A stretch of 64,000 bases of DNA, from assembly GCF_001677475.2 (NCBI RefSeq), contig NZ_CP015229.1; one strand, given 5' to 3'. Source of the DNA: Escherichia coli (GTDB lineage Bacteria; Pseudomonadota; Gammaproteobacteria; Enterobacterales; Enterobacteriaceae). The translations under genes were made by a program, and so were the position numbers. Of this stretch, positions 1 to 59,401 are shown in pieces (within the stretch, counting starts at the first letter, position 1; every line of letters begins with the position of its first letter). Under the pieces are notes generated by a model. That model worked only from the letters and a program-made list of their open reading frames with translations. It had not been told where the DNA came from and ran no database searches.

Positions 1-1
1 C

Positions 2-469
2 ACGCTGACGGTTTCTAACCTGTACGGTATGGTCACCGGGATGGCGGAAGATCTGCAGAGTCTGGTCGGCGGAACGGTGGTCCGGCGTAAGGTTTACGCC
101 CGTTTTCTGGATGCGGTGAACTTCGTCAACGGAAACAGTGACGCCGATCCGGAGCAGGAGGTGATCAGCCGCTGGCGCATTGAGCAGTGCAGCGAACTGA
201 GCGCGGTGAGTGCCTCTTTTGTACTGTCCACGCCGACGGAAACGGACGGCGCTGTTTTTCCGGGACGTATCATGCTGGCCAACACCTGCACCTGGACCTA
301 TCGCGGCGATGAGTGCGGTTATCACGGTCCGGCGGTCGCGGATGAATATGACCAGCCAACGTCCGATATCACGAAGGATAAATGCAGCAAATGCCTGAGC
401 GGTTGTAAGTACCGCAATAACGTCGGCAACTTTGGCGGCTTCCTTTCCATTAACAAACTTTCGCAGTAA
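2..469 (+). CDS. L: Lambda-like minor tail protein L, C-terminal part (N-terminus lies upstream of the window)
   Basis: Frame open from base 2; translation (TLTVSNLYGMVTGMAED...FLSINKLSQ) matches the phage lambda L C-terminus as recalled; followed by K, I, J in lambda order. Confidence 0.8.
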   Translation, partial: TLTVSNLYGMVTGMAEDLQSLVGGTVVRRKVYARFLDAVNFVNGNSDADPEQEVISRWRIEQCSELSAVSASFVLSTPTETDGAVFPGRIMLANTCTWTYRGDECGYHGPAVADEYDQPTSDITKDKCSKCLSGCKYRNNVGNFGGFLSINKLSQ

Positions 470-542
470 ATCCCATGTATTAGACGTCAACTAGTTTTGC
501 CGACTCGCGCCAACTATACTGGCCGCACCCTTCAGGGCGACA

Positions 543-1298
543 TCAAGTCGCGCTTGTTACTGCCTTCGCTGTCTTTTTCCTGTAGCTTTCCCCTTTCAGT
601 TCGAACATATATCCGTGATGGAGCAGCCTGTCTGCCGCAGCCACCGCCATAGTCTCATCCACGAAGATGCTGCCCCACATGCTGAACGGATGGTTACTGG
701 TTATCACCAGGCTCCCACGTTCATAGCGATGCGCTATTAACTCGAACAGCACACCCGTTTCGGCACTATCGCGTTTGACATAGCCAAGATCATCCACCAC
801 TATCACCCGGTAGCGATCCAGTTTCAGTAGCAGCTCATTCAGTTTCAACTGAGCTCTGGCTTTACGTAGTTCCTGCAACAGCTCTCCTGCGCTGTAGAAC
901 CGGGCCCGGTAGCCCTGACCTACTACGCCATCCACGATCGCTGCCGCCAGATGGCTTTTCCCCAACCCGCTGGCTCCGAACAGCAGAACGTTTTCTCCTG
1001 CATCAACCCAGTCTGTCGTTTCACAGAGTTGCCGGAACTGAGCTCCATTCAGTTCCGGCACCTGACTGAAGTCGTATTCGCTCAGCGTTTTGGCAACTGG
1101 CAACCGGGCCTCCTTTTTATAACGACGCAGTTTTTCACTCTCGCGCCACAGGAGTTCTTCATTGCATAGCGTCAGAAGATAGCGCGATGGTGTCCAGCCT
1201 TCTGCCAGCGCTCGTTTTTCCAGAGCGTGCCATTCAGCTCCAACTCGTGTCAGGCGTAGTTTACGCAGGCTATGTTCAAGGTGATGGATATTGCTCAC
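543..1298 (-). CDS. istB: IS21-family transposition helper ATPase IstB
   Basis: 251 aa ORF with Walker A motif GASGLGKSH and typical IstB length; start overlaps istA stop. Confidence 0.9.
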   Translation of the reverse strand: MSNIHHLEHSLRKLRLTRVGAEWHALEKRALAEGWTPSRYLLTLCNEELLWRESEKLRRYKKEARLPVAKTLSEYDFSQVPELNGAQFRQLCETTDWVDAGENVLLFGASGLGKSHLAAAIVDGVVGQGYRARFYSAGELLQELRKARAQLKLNELLLKLDRYRVIVVDDLGYVKRDSAETGVLFELIAHRYERGSLVITSNHPFSMWGSIFVDETMAVAAADRLLHHGYMFELKGESYRKKTAKAVTSAT

Positions 1299-2794
1299 TG
1301 CGAACCTCCCTTGCCACGCAGTAGTTGCTCATAACTGCTCAGGTTATGCTGTATCACATTGACTACCGGCAACGCCTTTTCTTTTATACCCAGGAAGCGC
1401 ATCAGCCGGTGCAGATCCACGTTTCCCGGGGTATTCAGCATCTGCTCCATACCTTTTGCCACGACTGAGATATCGTCGTATCCTGCAGCCAGTTTCAGGG
1501 CATGTACCATCAGCCTTCCTGCCATATCGGGCTCCAGATGATTACATAAGCGACGCCACAGCCTCCGCCATTCATCGTCCGGCAGGATGTCATTTCTCAG
1601 CGTTGCATGGCAGAACGCACCGGGCTTTTTTGCCAGACTGTCGATCACATGTCGGAAGTCGATACGACGGGCCCGCGTCTTCCCTTTTTCTGGTCTGACG
1701 CGAGGGCAGCTCATGACCTCGCTGCTGCCAACGTAACAGCTCAGACGATCGTCCCATAACCTGACCCGTAACAGTTGACCTACAAGCCGGGAAGGTACGC
1801 TGTAGACGACGTGCTTCACATTGATGGTACTGCTGCGACTAACCCTCACAGTCAGCTCATCATAGTCAGCACTGCGACGAAGCGGCAGCGGTTTCAGATG
1901 AAGACGTTCTTCCTTGACCAGATCCTGATTGTTACGGTTGTGCCGCATAACCTGCTGAGTGATGAAGGCCTGATATTCTTCTATGGTGCTGAAGTCGTTA
2001 CTGCCCCGCAGTATCAGCGCCTGACAGATACGCCTTTTCAGATGTCCGTGGGCACTTTCAACCGAGCCATTTTCGTGGCCCCGACCGGCATTATTGTGTA
2101 CGCCCTGCATTCCGTAGTGCTGACAGAGAGTAGCATAACGCTCAGTCAGCTCGCGGCGTCCATCTTCGCCCTGTTGTTTCCATGCTGCCCTCAGGCTGTC
2201 CGTTTTATGTTCTACCGGCACTCCGCCCAGTTGTCCGAGGGCTTCCTGCAGGCCTTCAGCCAGAGCAGAGAAGCTCTCACCACCCAGAACAACCCGCATC
2301 CAGCTCCAGTGGCTCCATTCCAGACGGAAGTGATACAACTTATGCGCCAACAACTTACCGGCGATGGTGACAACTACACCTTTCAGTTCAGTAAAGTCCG
2401 ACAGGCCTCGCAGGCCGGGCTGATGTTGCTGGCGGAACATGACCTCCTGCTCTGTACCATACTGTAGTTTCCATTCGCGAACCCGCCGTTGCATTGTTCT
2501 TCGAAGGCTGTTGGGGTACTGGCCGGGATATTTATCCTGTAGCATCTCCAGTAGAGTTGTTGGTGTCAGAGCCGGCCTCTCTTTCAACAGAGGAACAAGC
2601 ATGCTGTCCCACACAGCTTCCAGAGGATCTTTGCGTGTGCGCCAGTGCCGAACACTGTTTTTTGCCCACTCTCCTTTTTCGATCCGACGACCAGAACGGA
2701 CTGAGATACCAGCCTTCATGGCCGAGATATGCTGAGTTATACCTTTCTTACGCTGAGTCATATAGTAACTGACCTGAGAAGTATTGAGCGTCAC
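1295..2794 (-). CDS. istA: IS21-family transposase IstA
   Basis: 499 aa ORF immediately upstream of and coupled to istB; N-terminal HTH-like region and integrase-like core; family assignment by architecture. Confidence 0.85.
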   Translation of the reverse strand: MTLNTSQVSYYMTQRKKGITQHISAMKAGISVRSGRRIEKGEWAKNSVRHWRTRKDPLEAVWDSMLVPLLKERPALTPTTLLEMLQDKYPGQYPNSLRRTMQRRVREWKLQYGTEQEVMFRQQHQPGLRGLSDFTELKGVVVTIAGKLLAHKLYHFRLEWSHWSWMRVVLGGESFSALAEGLQEALGQLGGVPVEHKTDSLRAAWKQQGEDGRRELTERYATLCQHYGMQGVHNNAGRGHENGSVESAHGHLKRRICQALILRGSNDFSTIEEYQAFITQQVMRHNRNNQDLVKEERLHLKPLPLRRSADYDELTVRVSRSSTINVKHVVYSVPSRLVGQLLRVRLWDDRLSCYVGSSEVMSCPRVRPEKGKTRARRIDFRHVIDSLAKKPGAFCHATLRNDILPDDEWRRLWRRLCNHLEPDMAGRLMVHALKLAAGYDDISVVAKGMEQMLNTPGNVDLHRLMRFLGIKEKALPVVNVIQHNLSSYEQLLRGKGGSQ

Positions 2795-2890
2795 GCCATT
2801 TCCTGTTGGATCATGTAAATGACACTCAGGTTACAAAACCGGCCAGAATAATCGGCGCCAGGCGGACTGAGTTATTGTCGTCTCATACCC

Positions 2891-3634
2891 ATGACACAGA
2901 CTGAATCAGCGATTCTGGCGCACGCCCGGCGGTGTTCGCCTGCGGAATCGTGCGGCTTCGTGGTGAGAACGCCGGAGGGAGACAGGTATCTTCCCTGCGT
3001 GAATATCTCCGGTGAGCCGGAGGCGTATTTCCGGATGTCGCCGGAGGACTGGCTGCGGGCAGAAATGCAGGGTGAGATTGTGGCGCTGGTCCACAGCCAC
3101 CCCGGTGGACTGCCCTGGCTGAGTGAGGCCGACAGGCGGCTGCAGGTGCAGAGTGATTTGCCGTGGTGGCTGGTCTGCCGGGGGGCGATTCACAAGTTCC
3201 GCTGTGTGCCACATCTTACCGGGCGACGCTTTGAGTACGGGGTGACGGACTGTTACACGCTGTTCCGGGATGCTTACCATCTGGCGGGGATTGAGATGCC
3301 GGATTTTCATCGCGGGGATGACTGGTGGCGTAACGGCCAGAATCTCTATCTGGATAATCTGGAGGCCACAGGGCTGTATCAGGTGCCGTTGTCATCAGCA
3401 CAACCGGGCGATGTGCTGCTGTGCTGTTTTGGTTCATCGGTGCCGAATCATGCCGCCATTTACTGCGGCGACGGCGAGCTGCTGCACCATATTCCTGAAC
3501 AACTGAGCAAACGAGAGAGGTATACCGACAAATGGCAGCGACGCACACACTCCCTCTGGCGTCACCGGGCATGGCACGCATCTGCCTTTACGGGGATTTA
3601 CAACGATTTGGCCGCCGCATCGACCTTCGTGTGA
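2891..3634 (+). CDS. K: Lambda-like tail assembly protein K (JAB/MPN metalloprotease-like plus NlpC/P60-like domains)
   Basis: 247 aa ORF; JAMM motif HSHx7Sx2D (HSHPGGLPWLSEAD); C-terminus matches lambda K as recalled; overlaps I by about 100 nt as in lambda; alternative internal start at 3035 corresponds to the classical 199-aa lambda K. Confidence 0.85.
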   Translation: MTQTESAILAHARRCSPAESCGFVVRTPEGDRYLPCVNISGEPEAYFRMSPEDWLRAEMQGEIVALVHSHPGGLPWLSEADRRLQVQSDLPWWLVCRGAIHKFRCVPHLTGRRFEYGVTDCYTLFRDAYHLAGIEMPDFHRGDDWWRNGQNLYLDNLEATGLYQVPLSSAQPGDVLLCCFGSSVPNHAAIYCGDGELLHHIPEQLSKRERYTDKWQRRTHSLWRHRAWHASAFTGIYNDLAAASTFV

Positions 3635-4203
3635 AAACGGGGGCCGAAGCCATCCGGGCGCTGGTCATGCAGATCCCGGCGTTTCGTCAGAAACTGAGCG
3701 ACGGCTGGTATCAGGTACGGATTGCCGGGCGGGACGTCAGCACGTCCGGGTTAACGGCGCAGTTACATGAGACTCTGCCTGATGGCGCTGTGATTCATAT
3801 TGTTCCCAGAGTCGCCGGGGCCAAGTCAGGTGGCGTATTCCAGATTGTCCTGGGGGCTGCCGCCATTGCCGGATCATTCTTTACTGCCGGAGCCACCCTT
3901 GCAGCATGGGGGGCAGCCATTGGGGCCGGTGGTATGACCGGTATCCTGTTTTCTCTCGGTGCCAGTATGGTACTTGGTGGTGTGGCGCAGATGCTGGCAC
4001 CGAAAGCCAGAACTCCCCGTACACAGACAACGGATAACGGTAAGCAGAACACCTATTTCTCCTCACTGGATAACATGGTTGCCCAGGGCAATGTTCTGCC
4101 TGTTCTGTACGGTGAAATGCGCGTGGGGTCGCGGGTGGCTTCTCAGGAGATCAGCACGGCAGACGAGGGGGACGGTGGTCAGGTTGTGGTGATTGGTCGC
4201 TGA
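3532..4203 (+). CDS. I: Lambda-like tail assembly protein I
   Basis: 223 aa ORF, same length and position as lambda I; Gly/Ala-rich hydrophobic C-terminal half. Confidence 0.85.
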   Translation: MAATHTLPLASPGMARICLYGDLQRFGRRIDLRVKTGAEAIRALVMQIPAFRQKLSDGWYQVRIAGRDVSTSGLTAQLHETLPDGAVIHIVPRVAGAKSGGVFQIVLGAAAIAGSFFTAGATLAAWGAAIGAGGMTGILFSLGASMVLGGVAQMLAPKARTPRTQTTDNGKQNTYFSSLDNMVAQGNVLPVLYGEMRVGSRVASQEISTADEGDGGQVVVIGR

Positions 4204-4221
4204 TGCAAAATGTTTTATGTG

Positions 4222-4249
4222 AAACCGCCTGCGGGCGGTTTTGTCGTTT
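4222..4249 (+). terminator. Terminator-like hairpin between tail genes I and J
   Basis: Perfect 8-bp stem AAACCGCC/GGCGGTTT with 4-nt loop, followed by a T-rich run. Confidence 0.4.
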
Positions 4250-4263
4250 ATGGAGCGTGAGGA

Positions 4264-7200
4264 ATGGGTAAAGGCAGCAGTAAGGGGCATACCCCGCGCG
4301 AAGCGAAGGATAACCTGAAGTCCACGCAGTTGCTGAGTGTGATCGATGCCATCAGCGAAGGGCCGGTTGAAGGTCCGGTGGATGGATTAAAAAGCGTGCT
4401 GCTGAACAGTACGCCGGTGCTGGACAGTGAGGGGAATACCAATATCTCCGGTGTCACGGTGGTGTTCCGTGCAGGTGAGCAGGAGCAGACACCGCCGGAG
4501 GGATTTGAATCCTCCGGCTCCGAGACGGTGCTGGGTACGGAAGTGAAGTACGACACGCCGATTACCCGGACCATCACGTCTGCAAACATCGACCGTCTGC
4601 GCTTTACCTTCGGTGTGCAGGCACTGGTGGAAACCACCTCAAAGGGGGACCGGAATCCGTCGGAAGTCCGCCTGCTGGTTCAGATACAACGTAACGGTGG
4701 CTGGGTGACGGAAAAAGACATCACCATTAAGGGAAAAACCACCTCACAGTATCTGGCCTCGGTGGTGGTGGGTAACCTGCCGCCGCGCCCGTTCAGTATC
4801 CGGATGCGCAGGATGACGCCGGACAGCACTACAGACCAGCTGCAGAACAAAACGCTCTGGTCGTCATACACCGAAATCATCGATGTGAAACAGGGCTACC
4901 CGAACACGGCACTGGTCGGTGTACAGGTGGACTCGGAGCAGTTCGGCAGCCAGCAGGTGAGTCGTAATTATCATCTTCGCGGGCGCATTCTGCAGGTGCC
5001 GTCGAACTATAACCCGCAGACGCGGCAATACAGCAGTATCTGGGACGGAACGTTTAAACCGGCATACAGCAACAACATGGCCTGGTGTCTGTGGGATATG
5101 CTGACCCATCCGCGCTACGGCATGGGGAAACGTCTTGGTGCGGCGGATGTGGATAAATGGGCGCTGTATGTCATCGGCCAGTACTGCGACCAGTCAGTGC
5201 CGGACGGCTTTGGCGGCACGGAGCCGCGCATCACCTGTAATGCTTACCTGACAACACAGCGTAAGGCGTGGGATGTGCTCAGTGATTTCTGCTCGGCGAT
5301 GCGCTGTATGCCGGTATGGAACGGGCAGACGCTGACGTTCGTGCAGGACCGGCCGTCGGATAAGGTGTGGACCTATAACCGCAGTAATGTGGTGATGCCG
5401 GATGACGGCGCGCCGTTCCGCTACAGCTTCAGCGCCCTGAAGGACCGCCATAATGCCGTTGAGGTGAACTGGATTGACCCGGACAACGGCTGGGAGACGG
5501 CAACAGAGCTTGTGGAGGACACGCAGGCCATTGCCCGTTACGGTCGTAACGTCACGAAGATGGATGCCTTTGGCTGTACCAGCCGGGGGCAGGCGCACCG
5601 CGCCGGGCTGTGGCTGATTAAAACGGAACTGCTGGAAACGCAGACCGTGGACTTCAGCGTGGGTGCCGAAGGGCTTCGCCATGTGCCGGGCGATATCATT
5701 GAAATCTGCGATGATGACTATGCGGGTATCAGCATCGGTGGTCGCGTGCTGGCGGTGAACAGCCAGACCCGGACGCTGACGCTCGACCGTGAAATCACGC
5801 TGCCATCCTCCGGCACCACTCTGATAAGCCTGGTTGACGGAAATGGCAATCCGGTCAGCGTGGAGGTTCAGTCCGTCACCGACGGCATGAAGGTGAAAGT
5901 GAGCCGTGTTCCTGACGGCGTTGCAGAATACAGCGTGTGGGGGCTGAAGCTGCCGACGCTGCGCCAGCGCCTGTTCCGCTGCGTGAGTATCCGTGAGAAC
6001 GACGACGGCACGTATGCCATCACTGCCGTGCAGCATGTACCGGAAAAAGAAGCCATCGTGGATAACGGGGCGCACTTTGACGGCGACCAGAGCGGCACGG
6101 TGAATGGTGTCACGCCGCCAGCGGTGCAGCACCTTACCGCCGAAGTCACCGCAGACAGCGGGGAGTATCAGGTACTGGCCCGCTGGGACACGCCGAAGGT
6201 GGTGAAGGGCGTGAGCTTCATGCTTCGCCTGACCGTGGCAGCGGACGACGGCAGTGAGCGGCTGGTCAGCACAGCCCGGACGACGGAAACCACATACCGC
6301 TTCAGACAACTGGCGCTGGGGCGTTATATGCTGACGGTCCGGGCGGTAAATGCCCGGGGGCAGCAGGGTGATCCGGCGTCGGTATCGTTCCGGATTGCGG
6401 CACCGGTAGCGCCTGTCACTATTGAACTGATACCGGGGTATTTTCAGATAACGGCGGTCCCGAAACTGGCTGTATATGACCCGACGGTACAGTTTGAGTT
6501 CTGGTTATCGGAAAAGCGGATTATCGATATCAGGCAGGTTGAAACCACAGCCCGCTATCTTGGTACGGCGCTGTACTGGATAGCCTCCGGACCGGATATT
6601 GAGCCGGGCAATAATTATTATTTTTACGTTCGCAGTGTGAATACCGTCGGCAAATCGGCATTTGTGGAGGCTGTTGGCCAGCCGGGTAACGATGCTGAGA
6701 AATATCTCCATTTTTTTGAAGGGAAAATAAACAGCACCCTGCTGGGGCAGGAGCTGAACGATCGTATTAATGCCTCGGCATTGCGCAGTGAAGTTGAGCA
6801 ACTGGAGGATGAGATCAATCAGCAGATAGAGAGTGATATTGCTGAAGTGACCCAAAAAATCGGGGAGACAGAAAACAGCCTCACGCAGCTGGTTGCGAAA
6901 AAAAATGATGAGCTGTCACTGGGTATATCACAGGTGAGCCAGAGAGTGGATAACGTCAGCAGCGAACTCACGCAGACGGTCAGTCAGAGTAATGAGGAGA
7001 ATGCACGCCAGATAGCGCAGGTTCGCCAGTATGTGGATCAAAAAAGCAGTGAAATCATGACGACAACGGACCAGAAGCTGGGAGATCAGGAGGCCACCAT
7101 CCAGCAGATACAAAAGGTTCAGACGGACACCAGTAATAACCTGAACAGTATGTGGGCCGTGAAACTGCAGCAGATGCAGGATGGTCGCCTTTATATTGCG

Positions 7201-7965
7201 GGTATCGGTGCCGGTATTGAGAACACCCCCGACGGCATGCAGAGTCAGGTGCTGCTGGCGGCAGACAGGATTGCGATGATTAATCCTGCAAATGGCAACA
7301 CAAAACCGATGTTTGTTGGTCAGGGTGATCAGATATTCATGAATGAAGTGTTCCTGAAATATCTGACGGCTCCCACCATTACCAGCGGCGGTAATCCTCC
7401 TGCATTTTCCCTGACACCGGACGGAAAGCTGACCGCTAAAAATGCCGATATCAGCGGTAACGTGAATGCGAACTCCGGGACGCTCAACAACGTCACGATA
7501 AATGAGAACTGTCAGATTAAGGGGAAACTGTCAGCCAACCAGATTGAAGGCGATATTGTCAAAACGGTCAGCAAGTCTTTCCCCCGCACGAACAGTTATG
7601 CCAGTGGCACCATCACGGTAAGAATCAGTGATGATCAGAAATTTGACCGGCAGGTCATGATACCGCCAGTGTTGTTCCGTGGTGGTAAGCATGAGAATTT
7701 CAACAGTAATAACCAACAGTCATACTGGTATTCAACCTGCCGGTTAAGAGTGACCCGCAATGGTCAGGAGATTTTTAATCAGTCCACGACGGATGCTCAG
7801 GGCGTATTTTCCTCAGTTATAGATATGCCTGCCGGACAGGGGGCGCTGACACTGACATTCACCGTATCTTCATCAGGAGCGAATAACTGGACACCAACAA
7901 CCAGTATCAGCGATCTGCTGGTTGTGGTGATGAAGAAATCCACAGCAGGTATCAGTATCAGCTGA
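4264..7965 (+). CDS. J: Lambda-like tail tip / host specificity protein J (1233 aa) with divergent C-terminal receptor-binding region
   Basis: N-terminal about 800 aa match lambda J as recalled ([21 protein letters not shown]...); C-terminal third diverges and is longer. Confidence 0.9.
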
Positions 7966-7982
7966 ATTTTATAACCCATAAC

Positions 7983-8008
7983 GGGCGTCAGAAATGACGC
8001 CTTTTTTA
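7983..8008 (+). terminator. Rho-independent terminator after J
   Basis: Stem GGCGTCA/TGACGCC with GAAA loop followed by TTTTTT. Confidence 0.6.
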
Positions 8009-8031
8009 TTGCAGAAAAGCGAGAGGTAATT

Positions 8032-8631
8032 ATGCGTAAACTTTATGCCGCCATTTTGTCCGCAGCCATTTGTCTGGCCTTATCCGGTGCGCCTGCATGG
8101 GCGTCTGAACATCAGTCCACGCTGAGCGCGGGGTATCTTCATGTCTCGACGAACGTTCCCGGCAGCGATGATCTGAACGGGATTAACGTGAAATACCGTT
8201 ATGAGTTTACGGACACACTGGGTATGGTGACGTCATTCAGCTATGCAGGAGACAAGAATCGCCAGCTGACCCGTTACAGCGATACCCGCTGGCATGAAGA
8301 TTCCGTTCGTAACCGCTGGTTCAGCGTAATGGCGGGGCCGTCTGTGCGCGTGAATGAATGGTTCAGCGCGTATGCGATGGCGGGTGTGGCTTACAGCCGT
8401 GTGTCGACTTTCTCCGGGGATTATCTCCGCGTAACTGACAATAAGGGGAAAACGCACGATGTGCTGACCGGAAGTGATGACGGTCGCCACAGCAACACGT
8501 CTCTGGCGTGGGGAGCTGGCGTGCAGTTTAACCCGACCGAATCCGTGGCTATTGATATTGCTTATGAAGGCTCCGGCAGTGGCGACTGGCGCACTGACGG
8601 TTTCATCGTGGGTGTCGGTTATAAGTTCTGA
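8032..8631 (+). CDS. lom: Lom-like outer membrane protein (Ail/Lom/PagC family)
   Basis: 199 aa ORF with signal peptide (MRKLYAAILSAAICLALSGAPAWA) and terminal aromatic residue (YKF); lambda lom position downstream of J. Confidence 0.85.
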   Translation: MRKLYAAILSAAICLALSGAPAWASEHQSTLSAGYLHVSTNVPGSDDLNGINVKYRYEFTDTLGMVTSFSYAGDKNRQLTRYSDTRWHEDSVRNRWFSVMAGPSVRVNEWFSAYAMAGVAYSRVSTFSGDYLRVTDNKGKTHDVLTGSDDGRHSNTSLAWGAGVQFNPTESVAIDIAYEGSGSGDWRTDGFIVGVGYKF

Positions 8632-8657
8632 TTAGCCAGGTAACACAGTGTTATGAC

Positions 8658-8686
8658 AGCCCGCCGGGTTCAGGCGGGCTTTTTTG
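8658..8686 (+). terminator. Rho-independent terminator after lom
   Basis: Stem AGCCCGCC/GGCGGGCT followed by TTTTT. Confidence 0.65.
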
Positions 8687-8696
8687 TGGGGTGAAT

Positions 8697-10787
8697 ATGG
8701 CAGTAAAGATTTCAGGTGTCCTGAAGGACGGAGCGGGTGAGCCTGTCGTAAACTGTGCGATTGAATTGCGAGCCAGAAGAACCAGTCCGACAGTTGTGGT
8801 TAATATTGTGGCAACCTGTCTTACGGGAAGTGATGGCGGGTATACTATTAATGCTGAGCCGGGATTTTATGATGTATTTTTGTCCCGCTCAGGGCATCCT
8901 CCTGTAAAGGCGGGGGAAATTTATGTTGCACCGACAGATGAGCCGGATACGCTGAATGCTTTTCTGGATGCACCAAAGGAGGGTGATTTACGCCCTGAGG
9001 TAATGAAGCGTTTTGAGGAAATGGTAAATACCGTTGTTCGCTTGTCTGAGCAGGTGGTCAGTGACAGGGAGAGAGCAGAAACAGCTGCTGATGATGCAAT
9101 CAATGCAGCAACATCTGCGGCGGTTAGTAAGGATGAGGCAGAAGAGCTAAAAAATCAGACACAGCAGAGCGCCGAAGCTGCAGCCGGAAACGCACAGCAG
9201 ACGGCACAGGATGTGACGACAACCGCAACGGCCCGTGATGATGCGGAACGTTTTGCGGGTGAGGCAGAAAACAGCGCACAGTCATCAGGCACAGCGCGGG
9301 ACGAATCAGTCGATGCCGCCGAACGCGCCCGCCTTTATCATAATGCCGCATCATCAGCAGCGACCAGTTCAGAACTGTCGGCAAATGCGGCGCTGGGGCA
9401 CAAAAACAGTGCCGCCGAATACGCCCGACAGGCTAAAGCCAGCCAGGATGCAGGTGCAGACAATGCGCAGGAAGCGAAACAGTACAGGGATGAGGCGCAG
9501 CAGATAGTTGATGACCTGAATGCAACAAATGCCTCCACGACAGAAAAAGGTCTGGTGCAACTCTGTAGTGATACGGACAACGACAGCGAGGAACTGGCTG
9601 CCACGCCAAAGGCTGTCAAAGACGTCATGGACGAGGCGAAAACAAAAGCGCCACTGGACAGTCCGGCCTTCACCGGCACCCCAACCACCCCAACCCCACC
9701 GGATGATGCCGCCGGTCTGGAAGCAGCGAACGCAGCGTTTGTGCGCAAACTGCTTGCTGCGCTGGTTGGCTCATCGCCGGAAGTTCTGGACACCCTGAAC
9801 GAGCTGGCAGCGGCGCTGGGCAATGACCCGAACTTTGCGACGACAATCACAAACGCGCTGGCAGGCAAACAACCGCTTAATGACGTCTTAACGGCAATCA
9901 GCGCACTGACGCAACGGGCAGATAATCTTCTGTACTTCAATACAGACGGGAATGCCTCACTGTCTCTGCTGTCAGAGAAGGGCCGCGCATTACTGGCGCA
10001 TGACACGGCTGAAGCCATGCGCACGGAGCTTGAGCTGAACGCGGCTGCGACGATGGAACCCCAGAGTGATATCCGTGACCGCACACCGGGCAGGCTGGCC
10101 CTGTCCGGGATGTATGGGTTTGGACAGGCATTCACCAGCACTGACGCTCTGGCGTTTGAGGGGCTGTCTGATTTCGTTGAGTGGTTGAAGAAAGTCACGC
10201 CGGGGCGGTATGCGGTCAGTATTACAGACTCCTCGCAACTGCTTACCGGTACCACGCAATTTAACGGCATTATTGATGTGATGTGGTCACCGTACGCCAA
10301 CAGTGAATCCGACACAGTCCGCAAATTTAAAACCCTGATGTGCTACAACCAGTATTATCAGGGTGAACACTGTATTCACTATATGCAGTACCGGTACAAC
10401 GACAGCGATAACAGCTGGAACATGTCATCGCGGGTAGTTGTATACGACGGAGATTCACTGGCGTACCTGCTGTCCAGGATGGCGGGCTCAGGCTCATATT
10501 ATAAATACCCGGCCGTTGGTGTGCCGATTATGGCGGCATATCAGGGGGAGAGTTTTGGTGCAGATGCGTCTCTGGGGCTCGGTGATATTGTGCCGGGTTC
10601 CCGTCTTGGCCCTCTGGCTATGAGTGCACGGGTTAGCGATACAGGGACATACGCATCCTCACCGCAGGTTGTGATTGGCGGTGCTGGTGAATACAACTTC
10701 CCCGGTCGTTACACGGCGCTTTCGGGGACCCGCATTAGTCACGATACAACGCGTGGCTATATCGGTCTTTTTGTACGCATTGAGTAA
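8697..10787 (+). CDS. stf: Prophage side tail fibre protein (Stf-like)
   Basis: About 696 aa ORF (ATG at 8697; the ORF track starts at GTG 8691); Ala/Gln/Glu-rich fibrous central region; followed by tfa. Confidence 0.8.
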   Translation: MAVKISGVLKDGAGEPVVNCAIELRARRTSPTVVVNIVATCLTGSDGGYTINAEPGFYDVFLSRSGHPPVKAGEIYVAPTDEPDTLNAFLDAPKEGDLRPEVMKRFEEMVNTVVRLSEQVVSDRERAETAADDAINAATSAAVSKDEAEELKNQTQQSAEAAAGNAQQTAQDVTTTATARDDAERFAGEAENSAQSSGTARDESVDAAERARLYHNAASSAATSSELSANAALGHKNSAAEYARQAKASQDAGADNAQEAKQYRDEAQQIVDDLNATNASTTEKGLVQLCSDTDNDSEELAATPKAVKDVMDEAKTKAPLDSPAFTGTPTTPTPPDDAAGLEAANAAFVRKLLAALVGSSPEVLDTLNELAAALGNDPNFATTITNALAGKQPLNDVLTAISALTQRADNLLYFNTDGNASLSLLSEKGRALLAHDTAEAMRTELELNAAATMEPQSDIRDRTPGRLALSGMYGFGQAFTSTDALAFEGLSDFVEWLKKVTPGRYAVSITDSSQLLTGTTQFNGIIDVMWSPYANSESDTVRKFKTLMCYNQYYQGEHCIHYMQYRYNDSDNSWNMSSRVVVYDGDSLAYLLSRMAGSGSYYKYPAVGVPIMAAYQGESFGADASLGLGDIVPGSRLGPLAMSARVSDTGTYASSPQVVIGGAGEYNFPGRYTALSGTRISHDTTRGYIGLFVRIE

Positions 10788-10801
10788 TAAGGAAATAAGA
10801 C

Positions 10802-11380
10802 ATGAAAATCAGAGCGGTGAAAGGCATCAGAAACGCGCATTATCTTGAAAATGGTGCGGTTGACTGCGAGGTGTTATTTGAAGGTGAAACGGAGTTCGTC
10901 CTGTATACCGCCATACAGGATGATATGGCCCCGACAGGCCAGCATGTCTGGCAGGAGCTGCAAAGCGGGAAATGGGGCGAAATCGCCCCGTTCACCGTCA
11001 CGCCGGAACTTATTGCAGCGGCAAAGGATGCCAAAAGGCGGGAAATTGAGGCATGGCGCGACAGTCAGGAAAACGTTGAGTTTATTTTCACGTTTGATGG
11101 CCGTCGTTTTGATGGCGGAAAAACCTCGCAGTCACGCCTTGCCCCCGTGGTTGCAACAGCACAGGCCGGACTGCTTCCGGAGGGATTTTTCTGGACTGAT
11201 GCGGATAATAATAACGTCGTACTGACCAGGGAGAAACTTATTGCGCTGAACGATGCCATGATGGTGGCCATGGTGGCGGAGGGCTTTAAAATCCACGAAC
11301 GTCAGCGGGAGATGAAAGAGGAACTGAGCAGCCTGGAGGATTTACGCTCAATCAGAGCGATGGCGATTAGCAGTAATTAG
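10802..11380 (+). CDS. tfa: Tail fibre assembly protein (Tfa-like chaperone)
   Basis: 192 aa ORF immediately downstream of stf; Tfa-like length and position. Confidence 0.8.
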   Translation: MKIRAVKGIRNAHYLENGAVDCEVLFEGETEFVLYTAIQDDMAPTGQHVWQELQSGKWGEIAPFTVTPELIAAAKDAKRREIEAWRDSQENVEFIFTFDGRRFDGGKTSQSRLAPVVATAQAGLLPEGFFWTDADNNNVVLTREKLIALNDAMMVAMVAEGFKIHERQREMKEELSSLEDLRSIRAMAISSN

Positions 11381-11470
11381 CGGTCAATTCTGGGCTCTTT
11401 GTCTGCTCCTTCACCGTCTGGAATTGTGTGTCAATTAGCCTGGAATTAATCGGGTTCAGATTGTTTTGTT

Positions 11471-11513
11471 GTGGCAAAATTGGGACAAAAGGGGCAAAAA
11501 TGGGGCAAAAAAA
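11471..11513. repeat. Four tandem approximately 10-bp GGGGCAAAA-like units (phased A-tracts)
   Basis: GTGGCAAAAT / TGGGACAAAA / GGGGCAAAAA / TGGGGCAAAAAAA read directly from the sequence, helically phased. Confidence 0.7.
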
Positions 11514-11805
11514 GAGTAGGTTATTGTGGTTTATTGTAGTTGCTGATATGTTTTAATTCATTGAAAATGAAATAAAATACTTATGAGTCAGATGGTTGCA
11601 ATTTTTGTCCTTACTTGTTCAGGTTGTATTGTTCTTTCTTACTAATTTCTTGATTTTGCGACATTTAAAAGCGACTCAATTCGTTATATGGCATCAGAAG
11701 AGTATGCGTCATGCCGGAATGCCCAGCATAAGAAATCTGATATAAAAACAGTGGCGTGTATGGTACGGATTAGAGGGGAAAATGTCAGCACATTTGCGAA
11801 ATGAA

Positions 11806-11836
11806 TCAAAAAGCCCGCAGCAATGTGCGGGCGTTA
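11806..11836 (-). terminator. Rho-independent terminator downstream of uspF
   Basis: On the minus strand: stem GCCCGCA/TGCGGGC followed by TTTTTGATTC, directly after the uspF stop. Confidence 0.6.
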
Positions 11837-11839
11837 GTG

Positions 11840-12355
<516 letters not shown>

Positions 12356-12414
12356 TTAGATCAAAGGAGGAAGAATAAGCAGAAAAAGCCCGCCATAACA
12401 GCGGGCAGGAGGAT

Positions 12415-13548
12415 TTAGAACTGATAAACCAGACCTAAAGCGACAATATCATCGGTAGAGATGCCGTTGGCAGCGTAGAAGCTGTCATCTTCATCCAACA
12501 GGTTGATTTTATAGTCAACATAGGTGGACATGTTTTTATTGAAATAGTAAGTCGCGCCAACATCGGCGTATTTAACCAGATCTTTATCATCAACACCTGC
12601 CGGGTTGTCTGCACCACCGGCAGCGTGCAGGTCACGGCCTTTAGACATCAGGAAAGAGACTGCCGGACGCAGACCAAAATCAAACTGGTACTGTGCAGTA
12701 ACTTCAAAGTTCTGGGTTTTGTTTGCAACAGCATAATCGCTGTCGCCAAACGGGGTCATATTACGCGTTTCTGAATACATGGTTGCCAGGTAAATATTGT
12801 TAGCATCGTATTTTAGCCCAGCAGTCCACGCGTCTGCTTTATCACCACCCGCCGCAGTATGGTTAACCTGGTCATTGGTGCGGTCAGAAGAGGTGTATGC
12901 CGCACCAGCGCTAAAGCCCATGCCTAAATCATATGTTGTGGAAAGACCCCAGCCGTCACCGTTTTCATGGCGAACATCACGTCCGTTGTTGGTGCCTTCC
13001 TGACCATTACTGGCACCTTCGTTGTTACCTTGATACTGCACCGCGAAGTTCAGACCATTTACCAGACCGAAGAAATCAGTATTACGATAAGTCGCGACGC
13101 CATTGGCACGACCAGTCATAAAGTTGTCTGCATTGGTATAAGAGTCACCGCCAAATTCAGGCAGCATATCGGTCCAGCCTTCGATGTCGTACATTACGCC
13201 ATAATTACGTCCGTAATCGAAAGAACCGTAATCTGCAAATTTCAATCCGGCAAATGCCAGACGGGTCCATGACTGGTTTTTTGAGGATTCAGTGTTGTTT
13301 GCCTGAATATTGTATTCCCATTGACCGTAGCCAGTGAGTTGATCGTTAATTTGGGTTTCGCCTTTAAAACCCAGACGCGCATAGCTCTGGTCGCCATCTT
13401 TCGCTGAATTATCAGAAAAATAATGCAGGCCATCAACTTTGCCATACAGATCTAATTTGTTGCCGTCTTTATTATAAACTTCGGCTGCATGTGCAGCACC
13501 TGCGGCGAGCAGGGCAGGAATTAAAAGTGCCAGTACTTTGCTTTTCAT
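12415..13548 (-). CDS. ompN: Outer membrane porin OmpN (OmpC/OmpF family)
   Basis: 377 aa porin with signal peptide and C-terminal ...LVYQF; located between uspF and micC/ydbK as in K-12. Confidence 0.85.
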
Positions 13549-13775
13549 TGAATAAATCCTTTAGTTATTTTATTTGCCTTTTATCCCCATTTCGGGGAGT
13601 GAAAACATCCTAAAGGAGAAGTTCAGTTAGCCGATAAATATCATTTGTTACGCCTTAAGTAAAACCTTAATCAAATAATTCCTCTGAAATGACAATAAGT
13701 CTTGTGAATGTATCGAAGATAATACATACAAAATAAAAATTATACTTTTAATTTGCTATACGTTATTCTGCGCGG

Positions 13776-13884
13776 GTTATATGCCTTTATTGTCACAGAT
13801 TTTATTTTCTGTTGGGCCATTGCATTGCCACTGATTTTCCAACATATAAAAAGACAAGCCCGAACAGTCGTCCGGGCTTTTTTT
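13776..13884 (+). ncRNA. micC: MicC small regulatory RNA (Hfq-dependent, represses ompC)
   Basis: Sequence GTTATATGCCTTTATTGTCACAGATTTTATTTTCTGTTGGGCC...CCCGAACAGTCGTCCGGGCTTTTTTT matches recalled MicC including the terminator hairpin; ompN-ydbK intergenic position. Confidence 0.9.
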
Positions 13885-13913
13885 TAGAATTGGATAATCC
13901 TTATCCAGAGCAT

Positions 13914-16900
13914 TTAATCGGTGTTGCTTTTTTCCGCTTTTCCGGCCATTTGTGCCAGGAAGTCATAGCGTTTTTGCAAATCAGCTGCGGCATCTTTCCA
14001 TAACTGTTCTGCCACTTCTGGCTGCTGCGAATTCAGACGACGGAAACGCTGCTCGTGAAGTAACGTTTCTTCCAGTGCTTCTGACGGCGGGCGTGAATCC
14101 AGCGCCAGCGGCAGTTTGCCTTCATCGGCACGACGCGGATCAAAGCGATATAGCGGCCAGAAGCCGGTAGCAGTGAGTTGGCGCATCTGGTCGTGACTGA
14201 GTGCCAGATCGTAACCATGCTCTTCACACGGGCTATAAGCGATGATCAGCGATGGCCCCGGATACGCTTCCGCTTCCTGAATCGCTTTCACCGTCTGGTT
14301 GAGCTGCGCGCCGAGAGAAATCTGCGCCACATAAACATGACCGTACATCATCATACTGACGCCAAGATCTTTACGCGCTTTACGTTTGCCGTGCTCGCCG
14401 AACTTAGTTACTGCACCCAGCGGTGTCGCTTTCGACGCCTGACCACCGGTGTTGGAATAGCATTGCGTATCCAGCACCAGAATGTTGATGTTTTCCGTCA
14501 AACTCAATACATGATCCAGACCGCCAAAGCCGATATCGTAAGCCCAGCCATCACCACCAATCAGCCAGATTGATTTTTCCACCAGTGCATCTGCGTCACG
14601 TAGCAGTTCATGTGCTTCGGCAACATCGTTGAGTTGCTGGCGTAAAGCTGCAACCTGCTCACGACGAACCTCTGGCGTAGCGTCTGATTTCAACGCCGTC
14701 AGTAATTCCGTCGGGATTTTATCGGCAAATTGATCCAGCAGACGAAGCACGCGGACACGGTGTTGATCGACCGTCAGGCGGAAACCAAGGCCAAATTCGG
14801 CGTTATCTTCAAACAGCGAGTTCGCCCATGCCGGCCCACGACCGTTGGCATCGGTGGTATACGGTGTAGAGGGCAGGTTACCGCCATAAATTGAAGAACA
14901 GCCGGTGGCGTTAGCGATCAACATCCGGTCGCCATAGAGCTGAGTCAGCAATTTAATATACGGCGTCTCGCCACAACCGGAGCAAGCACCTGAATATTCA
15001 AACAGCGGTGTAATCAGCTGCGATGTACGAATATCAATACGTTCCAGTTTGCTACGGTCGATTTCTGGCAGGTTGAGGAAGAAATCGTAATTGATTTTCT
15101 CTTCTTCGACATGTTCCAGGCGCGACATCATATTGATGGCTTTAATCTCTGGATTCTGACGGTCTTTCGCCGGGCAAACTTCGACGCACAGGTTACAACC
15201 GGTGCAATCTTCCGGAGCCACCTGCAAGACATATTTCTGCCCGCGCATATCACGCGATTTCACATCCAGCGAATGCAGGCTGGCAGGGGCGTTTTCCATC
15301 GCTTCAGGCGGTACCACTTTTGCGCGAATAGCTGAGTGTGGGCAAGCGGCGACGCAGTGGTTACATTGGGTACAGAGTTCCTCTTTCCAGATGGGGATCT
15401 CTTCGGCGATATTGCGTTTTTCCCAGCGCGTGGTGCCCATCGGCCAGGTGCCGTCTGGCGGCAGCGCCGAAACGGGGAGGGCATCACCAAGCCCGGCGAG
15501 CATCGCAGCGGTTACGGTTTTCACGAAATCAGGGGCGGCATCGGAAACCACTGGCGGTCGATTGGCGCTGTGCGGATTTACCGGTTGCAACGGAACTTCT
15601 TCTACGGATTCACGCGCCAGCGCCAGAGCCTGCCAGTTGCGCTCCACCAGATCCTGACCTTTGCTACTGTAACTTTTGGCAATCGCACCCTGCAATTCTG
15701 CGAGGGCGCTATCGCCAGGCAGAATTTGCGTCAGATGGAAAAAAGCCATCTGCATGACGGTATTAATACGGGCCGCCAGGCCACATTCGCGGGCGATTTT
15801 CGCTGCGTTAATCACATAGAAGCGCGCTTTTTTCTGGTTTAGCACGGCCTGAACTTCCTGCGGCAAGCGCGACCACACTTCATCTGCGCTGTACGGCGTG
15901 TTGAGCAGGAAAATGCCGCCAGGTTTTAAACGCTCAGCCATCTGATATTTATCGATAAACTGCAACTGGTGGCAGCCAACAAAATCAGCCTGGGAAATGA
16001 GATAAGCGGAACGAATCGGCTGTTCGCTCACGCGAAGGTGAGAAACCGTCAGGCCGCCCGCCTTTTTGGAGTCGTAAACAAAATAGCCCTGTGCGTACCA
16101 CGGCGTGGAATTACCGATAATCTTGATATTGTTTTTGGTCGCGGAAACGCTGCCATCACTACCAAGGCCATAAAACAAGGCTTCCAGTTTCGCCGAGTTT
16201 GGCAGGGTGTTTTCCGGCAACGGCAGTGACAGATTGGTCACATCATCGTAAATACCAACCGTAAAGCGCGCTTTCGGTTTAGCCGCGTTGAGCTCGGCAA
16301 ATACCGCCAGTACACAGTCCGGGCCAAATTCTTTGGATGAAAGACCATAGCGCCCACCAATGACACGGGGCAGGATTTCACGCTCGCCATTATTAAAAGC
16401 TTCTGCCAGTGCGGTCATCACATCCAGATAGAGCGGTTCTGCCTGGGCACCAGGTTCTTTGGTTCTGTCCAGTACCGCCACGCTGCGTACGGATCCCGGC
16501 AGAGCTTGTAGCAAGTGTTTGGCGGAGAAGGGACGGTACAGGCGAACTTTCAGCACGCCAACTTTTTCGCCACGGGTTAGCAATTCATCAACCACTTCTT
16601 CACAGGTGCCAATGGCAGAGCCCATCAGGATAATCACCCGTTCCGCTTGCGGATGCCCGTAATATTCAAACGGCTGATACTGACGACCTGTCGCGGCAGA
16701 GAAATCATTCATCGCCTGTTCAACATGGTCATAGACCGCGTTGTACCATGGGTTGGTGGCTTCGCGAGACTGGAAATAAGTGTCAGGATTGGCGGACGTA
16801 CCGCGGATCACCGGATGTTCCGGGTTGAGTGCCCGGGCGCGATGAGCATCAATTTCGGCCTGCGGCATGAGATCAAGAATCGTGTCATCGGCCAGCGGGA

Positions 16901-17438
16901 CAATTTTATTGATTTCGTGGGACGTGCGGAAACCATCAAAGAAATGAATAAATGGCACGCGGCTTTTCAGCGTCGCGATGTGCGAAATGAGAGCAAAGTC
17001 TTGCGCTTCCTGGACGTTTGCTGCACACAACATCGCGCAACCCGTCTGGCGCACCGCCATGACGTCGGAATGATCGCCAAAAATAGAGAGTGCATGTGTG
17101 GCAACGGTACGTGCCGCTACATGCAGGACAAACGGTGTGAGTTCGCCTGCCAGTTTGTACAGCGTCGGGATCATCAGCAGCAAACCCTGCGATGACGTAA
17201 ACGATGTTGAAAGAGCACCCGTCTGCAAAGCGCCATGCACGGTAGCGATAGCACCCGCTTCCGACTGCATTTCAACCACGCGTGGTGTGTCTCCCCAAAC
17301 GTTCTTCAAGCCGTTTCCGGCCCAGGCATCAGCCTGTTCTGCCATCGTGGAACTGGGGGTAATAGGGTAGATGGCGATAACTTCACTGGTGCGAAACGCC
17401 ACCGAAGCAACCGCGCCATTACCGTCAATAGTAATCAT
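13914..17438 (-). CDS. ydbK: Pyruvate:flavodoxin/ferredoxin oxidoreductase
   Basis: 1174 aa; TPP-binding and two 4Fe-4S ferredoxin motifs (CTQCNHCVAACP, CTGCNLCVEVCP). Confidence 0.95.
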   Translation of the reverse strand: MITIDGNGAVASVAFRTSEVIAIYPITPSSTMAEQADAWAGNGLKNVWGDTPRVVEMQSEAGAIATVHGALQTGALSTSFTSSQGLLLMIPTLYKLAGELTPFVLHVAARTVATHALSIFGDHSDVMAVRQTGCAMLCAANVQEAQDFALISHIATLKSRVPFIHFFDGFRTSHEINKIVPLADDTILDLMPQAEIDAHRARALNPEHPVIRGTSANPDTYFQSREATNPWYNAVYDHVEQAMNDFSAATGRQYQPFEYYGHPQAERVIILMGSAIGTCEEVVDELLTRGEKVGVLKVRLYRPFSAKHLLQALPGSVRSVAVLDRTKEPGAQAEPLYLDVMTALAEAFNNGEREILPRVIGGRYGLSSKEFGPDCVLAVFAELNAAKPKARFTVGIYDDVTNLSLPLPENTLPNSAKLEALFYGLGSDGSVSATKNNIKIIGNSTPWYAQGYFVYDSKKAGGLTVSHLRVSEQPIRSAYLISQADFVGCHQLQFIDKYQMAERLKPGGIFLLNTPYSADEVWSRLPQEVQAVLNQKKARFYVINAAKIARECGLAARINTVMQMAFFHLTQILPGDSALAELQGAIAKSYSSKGQDLVERNWQALALARESVEEVPLQPVNPHSANRPPVVSDAAPDFVKTVTAAMLAGLGDALPVSALPPDGTWPMGTTRWEKRNIAEEIPIWKEELCTQCNHCVAACPHSAIRAKVVPPEAMENAPASLHSLDVKSRDMRGQKYVLQVAPEDCTGCNLCVEVCPAKDRQNPEIKAINMMSRLEHVEEEKINYDFFLNLPEIDRSKLERIDIRTSQLITPLFEYSGACSGCGETPYIKLLTQLYGDRMLIANATGCSSIYGGNLPSTPYTTDANGRGPAWANSLFEDNAEFGLGFRLTVDQHRVRVLRLLDQFADKIPTELLTALKSDATPEVRREQVAALRQQLNDVAEAHELLRDADALVEKSIWLIGGDGWAYDIGFGGLDHVLSLTENINILVLDTQCYSNTGGQASKATPLGAVTKFGEHGKRKARKDLGVSMMMYGHVYVAQISLGAQLNQTVKAIQEAEAYPGPSLIIAYSPCEEHGYDLALSHDQMRQLTATGFWPLYRFDPRRADEGKLPLALDSRPPSEALEETLLHEQRFRRLNSQQPEVAEQLWKDAAADLQKRYDFLAQMAGKAEKSNTD

Positions 17439-17711
17439 ATGACACCCTTACATTGCGCAAATGAGGGGCGCACGAAATTGCTGCGCGCCCAGTAGTAATC
17501 TTTCAATTTTAGCAAATGGCTTTCTTCTGCATTTTCGCTTTTGTGTCCCCCACATCAGCGTAATGAATGTTTTGATCAAACAGAGGGCAAAAAAATAGCC
17601 ATAAAAAAGTAAAAATGCGGGGCAATGCGCAGGACAGCTCTCGACGTCGCCCTCTGTGCTGCCTATTATTTATGGCGGTGTCGTTTGGCTTGAAGATCAG
17701 AGGAAGAAAAG

Positions 17712-17978
17712 ATGCGAGCAGCGTTTTGGGTAGGGTGTGCCGCTTTATTGTTGTCGGCGTGTAGTAGTGAACCTGTTCAGCAGGCGACTGCGGCGCACGT
17801 AGCGCCAGGTTTAAAAGCGTCGATGTCCAGTAGTGGAGAAGCAAATTGTGCAATGATCGGCGGTTCGCTTTCTGTTGCCCGTCAACTGGATGGTACGGCG
17901 ATTGGGATGTGTGCATTACCCAACGGCAAACGCTGTAGCGAACAGTCACTTGCCGCCGGGAGCTGTGGCAGCTATTAA
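17712..17978 (+). CDS. ydbJ: Small putative lipoprotein (DUF333 family)
   Basis: 88 aa with lipobox LLLSAC, RBS AGAGGAAG upstream; K-12 synteny. Confidence 0.8.
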   Translation: MRAAFWVGCAALLLSACSSEPVQQATAAHVAPGLKASMSSSGEANCAMIGGSLSVARQLDGTAIGMCALPNGKRCSEQSLAAGSCGSY

Positions 17979-18397
17979 TTCATTAAATCCGCCAGCTTAT
18001 AAGTTAATGTCTGTTTCGCGGTCGCCAGCGTTAACTGGTTCGCGGTCAGATCCACTTGTGCACCTTCCTTCAGCATGTCGCTAATGGTGTTATCAAGTTC
18101 ATTAAGCTGCGGGTTAGCGCACATCATACGGGTCATTGCCAGCCCTTTGGCTGTCAGTTCACCATTAGACAGTTTGCCTTCACCGCTAAAGCGGTTACAC
18201 ATGCTGCCGGAAATCATCATTTTTTCACCAAAGCTGATTTCTGGCGGATTTTTATCGCTGGTCACGGGCTTACCGTTTACGCTTTCCAGCACAAAGCGAT
18301 GATGCTGTAGCTGTTCTGGCGTTACAGCAATTTTGTCATTACTTACACATCCCGCCATCAGCAGGCTTAGCGCAACAAACGCGGCTACTTTCTTCAT
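17975..18397 (-). CDS. hslJ: Heat-shock lipoprotein HslJ (META domain)
   Basis: 140 aa from MKKVAAFVALSLLMAGC (lipobox); K-12 synteny. Confidence 0.85.
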   Translation of the reverse strand: MKKVAAFVALSLLMAGCVSNDKIAVTPEQLQHHRFVLESVNGKPVTSDKNPPEISFGEKMMISGSMCNRFSGEGKLSNGELTAKGLAMTRMMCANPQLNELDNTISDMLKEGAQVDLTANQLTLATAKQTLTYKLADLMN

Positions 18398-18507
18398 TGT
18401 GGTTCTCAATTACAGTTTCTGACTCAGGACTATTTTAAGAATAGAGAATGAAAGGTCATTGGGGATTATCTGAATCAGCTCCCCTGGATTGCAGGGGAGC
18501 GGCAAGA

Positions 18508-19497: not shown

Positions 19498-19704
19498 AAG
19501 ACTTTCTCCAGTGATGTTGAATCACATTTAAGCTACTAAAAATATTTTACAAAATTTCAAATATAATTGAAAGCTATGGCGATATTGAAAAATTCATCAA
19601 CAACTATGCTTAGTGTAGGCGCAACCTTCAACTGAACGGTTAAACATGCCACAATACCCGTATTGAATGCTTAATTTTTCGCTAAATCAGGATATTAACT
19701 ACCC

Positions 19705-41144: not shown

Positions 41145-41716
41145 ACGGTCTGACTCCGGTTGTACCAGAAGAGAGTTTTGTTCATCCGACAGCGGTATTG
41201 ATCGGCGATGTTATTCTCGGCAAGGGCGTTTACGTTGGACCAAATGCCAGTCTGCGTGGCGATTTTGGTCGTATCGTGGTGAAAGATGGCGCGAACATTC
41301 AGGATAATTGCGTTATGCACGGTTTTCCCGAGCAGGATACTGTCGTTGAAGAAGATGGGCATATTGGTCATAGCGCTATCCTTCACGGCTGCATTATCCG
41401 CCGCAATGCATTAGTGGGAATGAACGCGGTCGTGATGGACGGTGCGGTGATTGGCGAGAATAGCATTGTTGGCGCATCCGCATTTGTGAAAGCCAAAGCA
41501 GAAATGCCTGCTAATTACCTGATTGTCGGCAGCCCGGCGAAACCGATTCGTGAACTCAGTGAGCAGGAGCTGGCATGGAAAAAGCAGGGCACGCATGAGT
41601 ATCAGGTGCTGGTGACACGTTGTAAGCAGACGTTGCATCAAGTCGAACCATTGCGGGAAGTTGAGGCTGGCAGGCAGCGTCTGGTATTTGATGAGAATCT
41701 GCGACCGAAACAGTAA
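41126..41716 (+). CDS. paaY: Hexapeptide-repeat thioesterase/acyltransferase PaaY
   Basis: 196 aa left-handed beta-helix protein; overlaps paaX end. Confidence 0.95.
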
Positions 41717-59157: not shown

Positions 59158-59401
59158 AGGATATTTAAAGAAAACGCCTGTACTAAAACCGACCCGTGGT
59201 ACAGGCGAAGAATACGGGCCTACATCGGAAGCGCCTATTATATTTATTTGTATGACAAATAAAACCATAATCCTTGTCCATACGTCCATCTGGCTTATCT
59301 TTAATCAATTCACCCGATCTTTGATCTCATCAACGGTATCAAAATAAACCAGCGTATAACGTTAAAATCAAACATAAGATTCGATAAATCATGGAGGTTA
59401 T

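Follow-up and report, generated by a model that had tools for sequence, protein, structure and literature searches.

Which prophage lies beside uspF in this Escherichia coli chromosome, and how is it related to Rac, which K-12 carries at the same place? The question is raised by the first 11.6 kb of a stretch of 64,000 nucleotides from contig NZ_CP015229.1 (assembly GCF_001677475.2), referred to here as the window. A preliminary description of the window had placed tail genes in λ order, ending about 460 bp short of uspF, and had proposed a different or mosaic prophage at the Rac hotspot, not K-12 Rac. The gene order is as described, and the gap from the last phage gene to the uspF stop codon (11840) is 459 bp. 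We conclude that bp 1–11640 very probably form the rightmost 11.6 kb of a lambdoid prophage inserted at the ttcA 5′ end, where Rac and the O157 prophages Sp10/CP-933R also reside. The segment consists of a λ-type tail module interrupted by an insertion sequence (IS), a distal fibre cassette, and the right attachment site, attR, of a Rac-type element.

The attachment site

The ttcA gene is the integration site of the prophages Rac, Sp10, and CP-933R. Rac-like prophages are present in many strains of E. coli, Shigella, and Salmonella, and excision of Rac brings back the ancestral TtcA N-terminus (Liu et al. 2015, PMC4632033).

The attachment (att) core of this site is found in the window, between the last phage gene and uspF. 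It is the 26-bp sequence TTGTTCAGGTTGTATTGTTCTTTCTT, which K-12 attL, inside ttcA, and K-12 attR, in ttcC, have exactly in common. The same core is present at the attR of five other loci. In the window it occurs exactly and only once, with no occurrence expected by chance and no second att core to the left or right. The core is embedded in ttcC, which is the former 5′ end of ttcA, displaced by the insertion, and encodes MSQNQEISKKEQYNLNK. The preliminary description had expected the prophage/chromosome junction within 11381–11840, and the search for the core confirms this. It had also held that ttcC is absent; in fact, a 51-bp remnant is there, identical at every position to the K-12 one. For annotation, the lesson is that an attR and a ttcC remnant should be sought in the 459-bp “intergenic” stretch.

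To the left of the core is the phage-side arm of attR. Three Rac-type right ends match the window from 11464, and those of K-12 and E. coli W from 11486. From these points to 11900, the window is 90–95% identical to the right ends of K-12 Rac, the CFSAN061771 prophage, E. coli W, and Sakai Sp10. The Rac phage-side arm is about 92–94% identical to that of the window, and the corresponding region of Sp10 (11464–11900) is 90% identical. The arm motif, GGGCAAA or GGACAAA, occurs at 11483, 11492, and 11503 and, inverted, at 11604. The K-12 attR and attL arms contain it likewise, at attL beside intR, and we suggest that the repeats are integrase arm sites. The locus thus has both hallmarks of the Rac site, namely, the core and ttcC beside uspF and a homologous arm with a repeated motif.

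The 26-bp core would be the site of recombination by a tyrosine integrase of the Rac type. Integration would replace the first 17 codons of ttcA, leaving the original fragment, ttcC, at attR beside uspF, and the matching attL would lie some 30–50 kb to the left. Because attR is intact, the element may still be excisable. Excision, if it occurs, would restore the ancestral TtcA N-terminus, as for Rac (PMC4632033).

The tail genes

The genes L, K, I, and J lie in this order on one strand, as in a λ-type tail tip, with the IS between L and K. They are followed by lom and then by a side tail fibre gene, stf, whose product has the phage_tail_N domain, PF08400 (Table 1). By analogy with phage λ, the visible genes would provide the tail tip (L, K, I, and J) and the side fibres, and Lom would be produced in the lysogen. 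The L gene is truncated by the edge of the window; its frame has no stop codon from base 2 and is open at the window start. The 5′ part of I overlaps the 3′ end of K, as does that of λ I.

The family matches of these genes are far beyond chance. Draft assemblies have identical or 99.98%-identical genes, on which the Pfam families are Phage_tail_L, Prok-JAB and NLPC_P60, Lambda_tail_I, GpJ domains, Ail_Lom, and phage_tail_N. The exact K protein occurs in many assemblies, where PF14464 and PF00877 are recorded for it, and a near-identical I gene in the draft assembly GCA_040424295.1 carries PF06805 (Lambda_tail_I). A J product of 1233 residues is called in four other loci, including that of GCA_040424295.1. 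The lom gene is 97–98% identical in nucleotide sequence to the two halves of K-12 lomR.

The true start of the side tail fibre protein, Stf, is the ATG at 8697, as the exact 696-residue product is found in six draft assemblies with PF08400 and PF03406. No exact product of the 698-residue form with a GTG start was found among protein-indexed assemblies. The N-terminal domain of Stf is common to λ and Rac fibres, and the distal part differs; the alignment with K-12 StfR is limited to residues 1–123, with 50% identity, and a short central stretch.

The gene after stf had been taken for tfa. A λ- or Rac-type Tfa was considered for this 192-residue open reading frame (ORF) and rejected. Its sole Pfam match is to DUF4376, and BLASTP against K-12 TfaR gave E = 0.89, which is no detectable similarity. 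Gene position alone would suggest a chaperone role for the DUF4376 protein. No cargo or RNA genes lie between the DUF4376 gene and attR, and the sole Rfam match in bp 1–20000 is MicC, in the chromosomal flank. A promoter and terminator scan gave the uspF terminator and otherwise matches at chance level.

Table 1. Features of the prophage right end and the adjoining chromosome, with positions in the window.
Feature	Position	Strand	Description and evidence
L	1..469	+	λ-type minor tail protein, C-terminal 155 codons; TIGR01600 phage_tail_L 1e-61, profile 77-224/224; phrog_18
Target-site duplication, left	472..477		CCCATG (6 bp)
IS	478..2887	-	IS21-family element, ISEc10-like, 2,410 bp, imperfect terminal inverted repeats; 98.3% to RefSeq-annotated ISEc10 copy; 99.9% to copy in draft GCA_040424295.1
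istB	543..1298	-	IS21 helper AAA+ ATPase, 251 aa, intact; NF038214 IS21_help_AAA 2e-79, 267 bits (cutoff 200)
istA	1295..2794	-	IS21-family transposase, 499 aa, intact; NF033546 transpos_IS21 5e-67, above cutoff
Target-site duplication, right	2888..2893		CCCATG, containing K start codon
K	2891..3634	+	Tail tip assembly protein, 247 aa, JAB/MPN and NlpC/P60 domains; phrog_30 8e-163
I	3532..4203	+	Tail tip assembly protein; phrog_32 6e-83
J	4264..7965	+	Central tail fibre/host-specificity protein, 1233 aa; NF049904 lambda_TipJ 2333 bits (cutoff 1950); phrog_31
lom	8032..8631	+	Ail/Lom outer-membrane beta-barrel protein, 199 aa; phrog_108 9e-110
stf	8697..10787	+	Side tail fibre, 696 aa; phrog_2636 2e-178
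DUF4376 gene	10802..11380	+	Protein in tail-fibre-assembly position, 192 aa; Pfam PF14301 8e-19; phrog_1141 3e-82
Spacer	11381..11463		After last phage gene; mosaic joint of fibre cassette and Rac-type arm at ~11452-11464
attR arm (P′)	~11464..11614		Phage-side arm of Rac-type attR; GGGCAAA/GGACAAA repeats
ttcC	11614..11664	-	Displaced original ttcA 5′ end; 51/51 identical to annotated K-12 ttcC pseudogene
att core	11615..11640		26 bp; exact, unique in window, 0 expected by chance
uspF	11840..12274	-	144 aa, first chromosomal gene past prophage; NF011581 303 bits; one amino-acid difference from K-12 UspF
ompN	12415..13548	-	377 aa; annotated ompN in syntenic loci
MicC	13773..13893	+	Small RNA; Rfam RF00121, 125.3 bits (gathering score 90)

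Comparison with Rac

Could the region be a plain K-12-type Rac? The att core, ttcC, and the arm are shared with K-12, and lom and the start of stf, which encodes the fibre N-terminus, are 97–98% identical in nucleotide sequence. However, K-12 Rac matches the first 11.9 kb of the window only at 8234–8731, which is lom and the first stf bases, and at 11486–11900. In K-12, L, K, I, and J are missing, and stfR, tfaR, pinR, ynaE, and ynaM are present instead. As the preliminary description had noted, pinR and ynaE are absent from the window, and so is ynaM; there is no K-12 match between 8731 and 11486. With matches confined to these two segments, identity with K-12 Rac was rejected, and a K-12-type Rac is almost certainly the wrong description of the region.

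The preliminary description went on to treat the full L-K-I-J-lom block as what sets the element apart from Rac. This does not hold, since the full-length Rac-type prophage that CFSAN061771 has at this site carries the block. Its gene order is recET, kilR, sieB, ydaTUV, trkG, terminase, capsid, ydaY, tape measure (H), M, L, K, I, J, lom, stf, tfaR, pinR, ydfK, ynaM, and attR. Its L-K-I-J-lom genes, in the same order as those of the window, are 91–95% identical to them. In contrast, K-12 Rac has lost M to J and retains just ynaA, a fragment of the tape-measure gene, fused next to lomR. Because CFSAN061771 has the block and K-12 has lost it, L-K-I-J belongs to the undeleted layout, and K-12 Rac is a deleted form. 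With a deleted prophage as the reference, tail genes at the ttcA site are to be expected.

K-12 Rac, CFSAN061771, and the window share the ttcA 5′-end site and have identical 26-bp cores and identical 51-bp ttcC remnants. Both Rac forms end in a longer fibre, TfaR, the pinR invertase, ynaE or ydfK, and ynaM, whereas the window has the 696-residue fibre and the DUF4376 protein directly before attR. Judged by sequence comparison, the real difference from Rac is this distal cassette, that is, the fibre, the DUF4376 protein, and nothing before attR.

Mosaic structure and relatives at ttcA and elsewhere

Identity to related prophages was scored in 150-bp windows. Together with the K-12 alignment, these scores bear out the proposal of a different or mosaic prophage at the Rac hotspot, as the two parts of the segment have different relatives.

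The tail module has its relatives at other att sites. The prophage of N96 matches the window from L through the DUF4376 gene at 98.8–100% identity. From lom to 11355, most of the 150-bp windows are at 99–100%, the exception being 10101–10250, with 88%. Unlike the window element, the N96 prophage lies at a tRNA-Ser gene next to hyaA, has an IS66 between lom and stf, and has no IS21 at the L-K junction. A prophage of OkiPb01715, near ompT, has a K-to-DUF4376 block that is 93% identical to that of the window, and its match ends at 11452. Isolated λ-like phages, for example, 2H10 and PhiR70_1, have L-K-I-J-lom at about 95–96% identity but are without this distal fibre cassette.

The right end, by contrast, resembles those of the ttcA-site prophages of E. 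coli W, RM9088, and OkiPb01695. In all three, the right end consists of the C-terminal part of stf, the DUF4376 gene, the arm, the core, and uspF, and OkiPb01695 is 97–100% identical to the window from about 10400 through attR and uspF. Unlike the window, these prophages have baseplate-type, myovirus-like structural genes and no λ L-K-I-J-lom tail tip. Those of E. coli W and RM9088 are complete prophages, whose early region at the ttcA site includes intR, xisR, ralR, and recET in E. coli W and recT, recE, and kilR in RM9088. The RM9088 prophage also carries toxin-like cargo, at 15035–18747 of the extracted locus, comprising genes for a scabin-related ADP-ribosyltransferase, a subtilase-family AB5 toxin B subunit, and enterotoxin A-family proteins, as well as paa. 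No cargo of this type is visible in the window element.

Among the known occupants of ttcA, Sp10 of O157:H7 Sakai and CP-933R share with the window the site, the core, the L-K-I-J-lom-fibre order, and the absence of pinR and ynaE. The right end of Sakai Sp10, which is annotated as a λ-like phage, reads L-K-I-sodC-J-lom-fibre-nleG (three copies)-uspF. Relative to the window, it has additional genes, with sodC separating I from J and the three nleG effector genes separating attR from the fibre genes, and its distal fibre differs. Moreover, its nucleotide identity to the window is only 74–79% in L, K, I, and the N-terminal part of J.

The exact combination in the window was found in none of 5,426 complete RefSeq E. 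coli genomes; the best matches stop at 11355–11401 or reach 11900 with 52% coverage. The junction between the DUF4376 gene and the arm is common to only two complete genomes. We propose that a λ-type tail module, known from other att sites, was joined to a W-type right end comprising the distal fibre, the DUF4376 gene, and the attR arm. The two would have been joined through homologous recombination at some point within the stf/DUF4376 sequence that they share. The DUF4376 segment is multi-copy, being found in up to six to eight places per genome in complete genomes. All draft contigs that contain the identical fibre gene end within the DUF4376 gene, for example, at window positions 10945 and 11160. 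The 3′ region of this gene thus behaves as a multi-copy repeat among resident prophages and is a likely recombination substrate.

The same observations allow another account, in which the tail genes and attR do not come from one integrated phage. The tail module would have reached uspF by chromosomal recombination between two resident prophages sharing stf/DUF4376, either by gene conversion or with the window holding the end point of an inversion or a translocation. The presence of the same module at other att sites (98.9% identity at the N96 tRNA-Ser site, 93% near ompT in OkiPb01715) favours this, and so do the many copies of the DUF4376 segment and the repeat-like breaks of the draft contigs inside it. 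Against it, in either case the segment runs colinear with an ordinary lambdoid right end, the IS is the sole scar, and nothing in the window tells an exchange before integration from one after it. We regard this origin as possible but doubtful. A more specific version is similarly tentative: a W-type Rac-like prophage at ttcA may have exchanged its entire structural region for the λ-type tail of another lambdoid phage, via the side-fibre genes that both share. This chromosomal hybrid would then have been fixed by the IS21 insertion as a tail-defective element that is still excisable.

An IS21-family element between L and K

The preliminary description listed L-K-I-J-lom as one block. The genes and their order stand, but the block is not contiguous, as the 2,410-bp IS between L and K had been overlooked. 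The ends of the element were set from both flanks in the window, the uninterrupted L-K junction of OkiPb01715, which reads TAAATCCCATGACACAG, and an independent insertion in the draft assembly GCA_040424295.1. The element has the marks of the IS21 family: IstA and IstB are encoded, the termini are inverted repeats, and the target duplication is short. In its 2.4-kb length, its istA and istB genes, its imperfect terminal inverted repeats, and the 6-bp duplication at its ends, it resembles ISEc10, a member of this family. The length of istA equals that in the draft GCA_040424295.1. No second copy of the IS is present within the window.

The IS sits precisely at the boundary of the two genes, after the stop codon of L and before the start codon of K. 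Normally, K starts five bases after the L stop codon; here, the two are 2.4 kb apart. As the CCCATG duplication includes the K start codon, K keeps its ATG. The insertion site is unseen in the 5,426 complete genomes, none of which has the L/IS junction. The 32-bp L/IS junction is also absent from the scanned collections of genome contigs and metagenome contigs. Likewise, none of the draft contigs with the exact K gene, all of which are 23.6 kb or shorter, has an IS at the L-K junction.

In GCA_040424295.1, whose tail module is 99.98–100% identical to that of the window, a 99.9%-identical IS is found elsewhere in the prophage. It lies at 1274–3693 of the extracted locus, upstream of a Z-like tail gene; its orientation is reversed, and the flanking duplication is ATGGCG. 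Since the IS occupies different sites within near-identical prophage modules, it seems to be actively mobile in such prophages.

We suggest that the intact element transposed into the 5-bp L-K spacer at a later time, duplicating CCCATG, presumably by the usual IstA/IstB mechanism. Lying in the late operon, the IS breaks the coupling of K to L and thereby probably reduces or abolishes production of the tail tip. Late-operon expression of K-I-J-lom-stf is likely to be impaired, and the prophage is likely to be defective in tail formation.

Extent and state of the prophage

The insertion could be taken as a sign that the region is only a prophage remnant, a tail end left at attR after loss of the head, early, and integrase regions. 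K-12 Rac is an example of extensive internal deletion at this locus, and an IS already inserted in the module would agree with decay. However, the phage ORFs that are visible are otherwise intact and full length, each as long as its counterpart in independent assemblies, and L continues past the edge of the window. In addition, the 100%-identical modules of draft assemblies extend leftward through M, H, T, G, V, U, and Z to the head genes. A bare remnant is thus unlikely, and the right-hand end of a longer lambdoid prophage at ttcA is the description that we prefer.

Several points weigh against this preference. The integrase, attL, and ttcA would be beyond the left edge of the window, and a complete prophage with a Rac-type integrase is thus a prediction. 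No full-length twin is available for inspection among the 5,426 complete genomes. The polar effect of the IS is purely inferred, and anti-terminated late transcription could read through the element.

The element is an ordinary one, one more of the known ttcA-site prophages, differing from that of K-12. We see the locus as a further example of how lambdoid prophages shuffle modules at the ttcA hotspot and decay through IS insertion, with little import beyond annotation.

The chromosomal flank

Beyond attR, the chromosome continues with uspF, ompN, and MicC (Table 1), and ydbK follows MicC, as in K-12. The flank from 11400 to 36000, which extends from uspF to the paa genes, has a best identity of 98.3–98.5% among the complete genomes. 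With identities no higher than 98.5%, the lineage seems to be poorly represented there, although drafts hold an identical prophage module.

Further into the window, paaY (41126–41716) is followed, after 231 bp, by a ydbC/pdxI-like oxidoreductase gene (41948–42808). The IS-disrupted autotransporter pseudogene ydbA, which we take to lie between paaY and ydbC in K-12, is not in the window. At the gapC position, an intact ORF (57437–58438, minus strand) encodes a type I glyceraldehyde-3-phosphate dehydrogenase of 333 residues (TIGR01534, 447 bits); in K-12, gapC is, as we assume, a pseudogene. Two RNAs with Rfam scores above the gathering score lie farther on, both on the minus strand: the small RNA RydC at 59168–59231 and a sok antitoxin RNA at 59791–59942. 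The latter, of a hok/sok-type locus, is presumably that of hokB/sokB.

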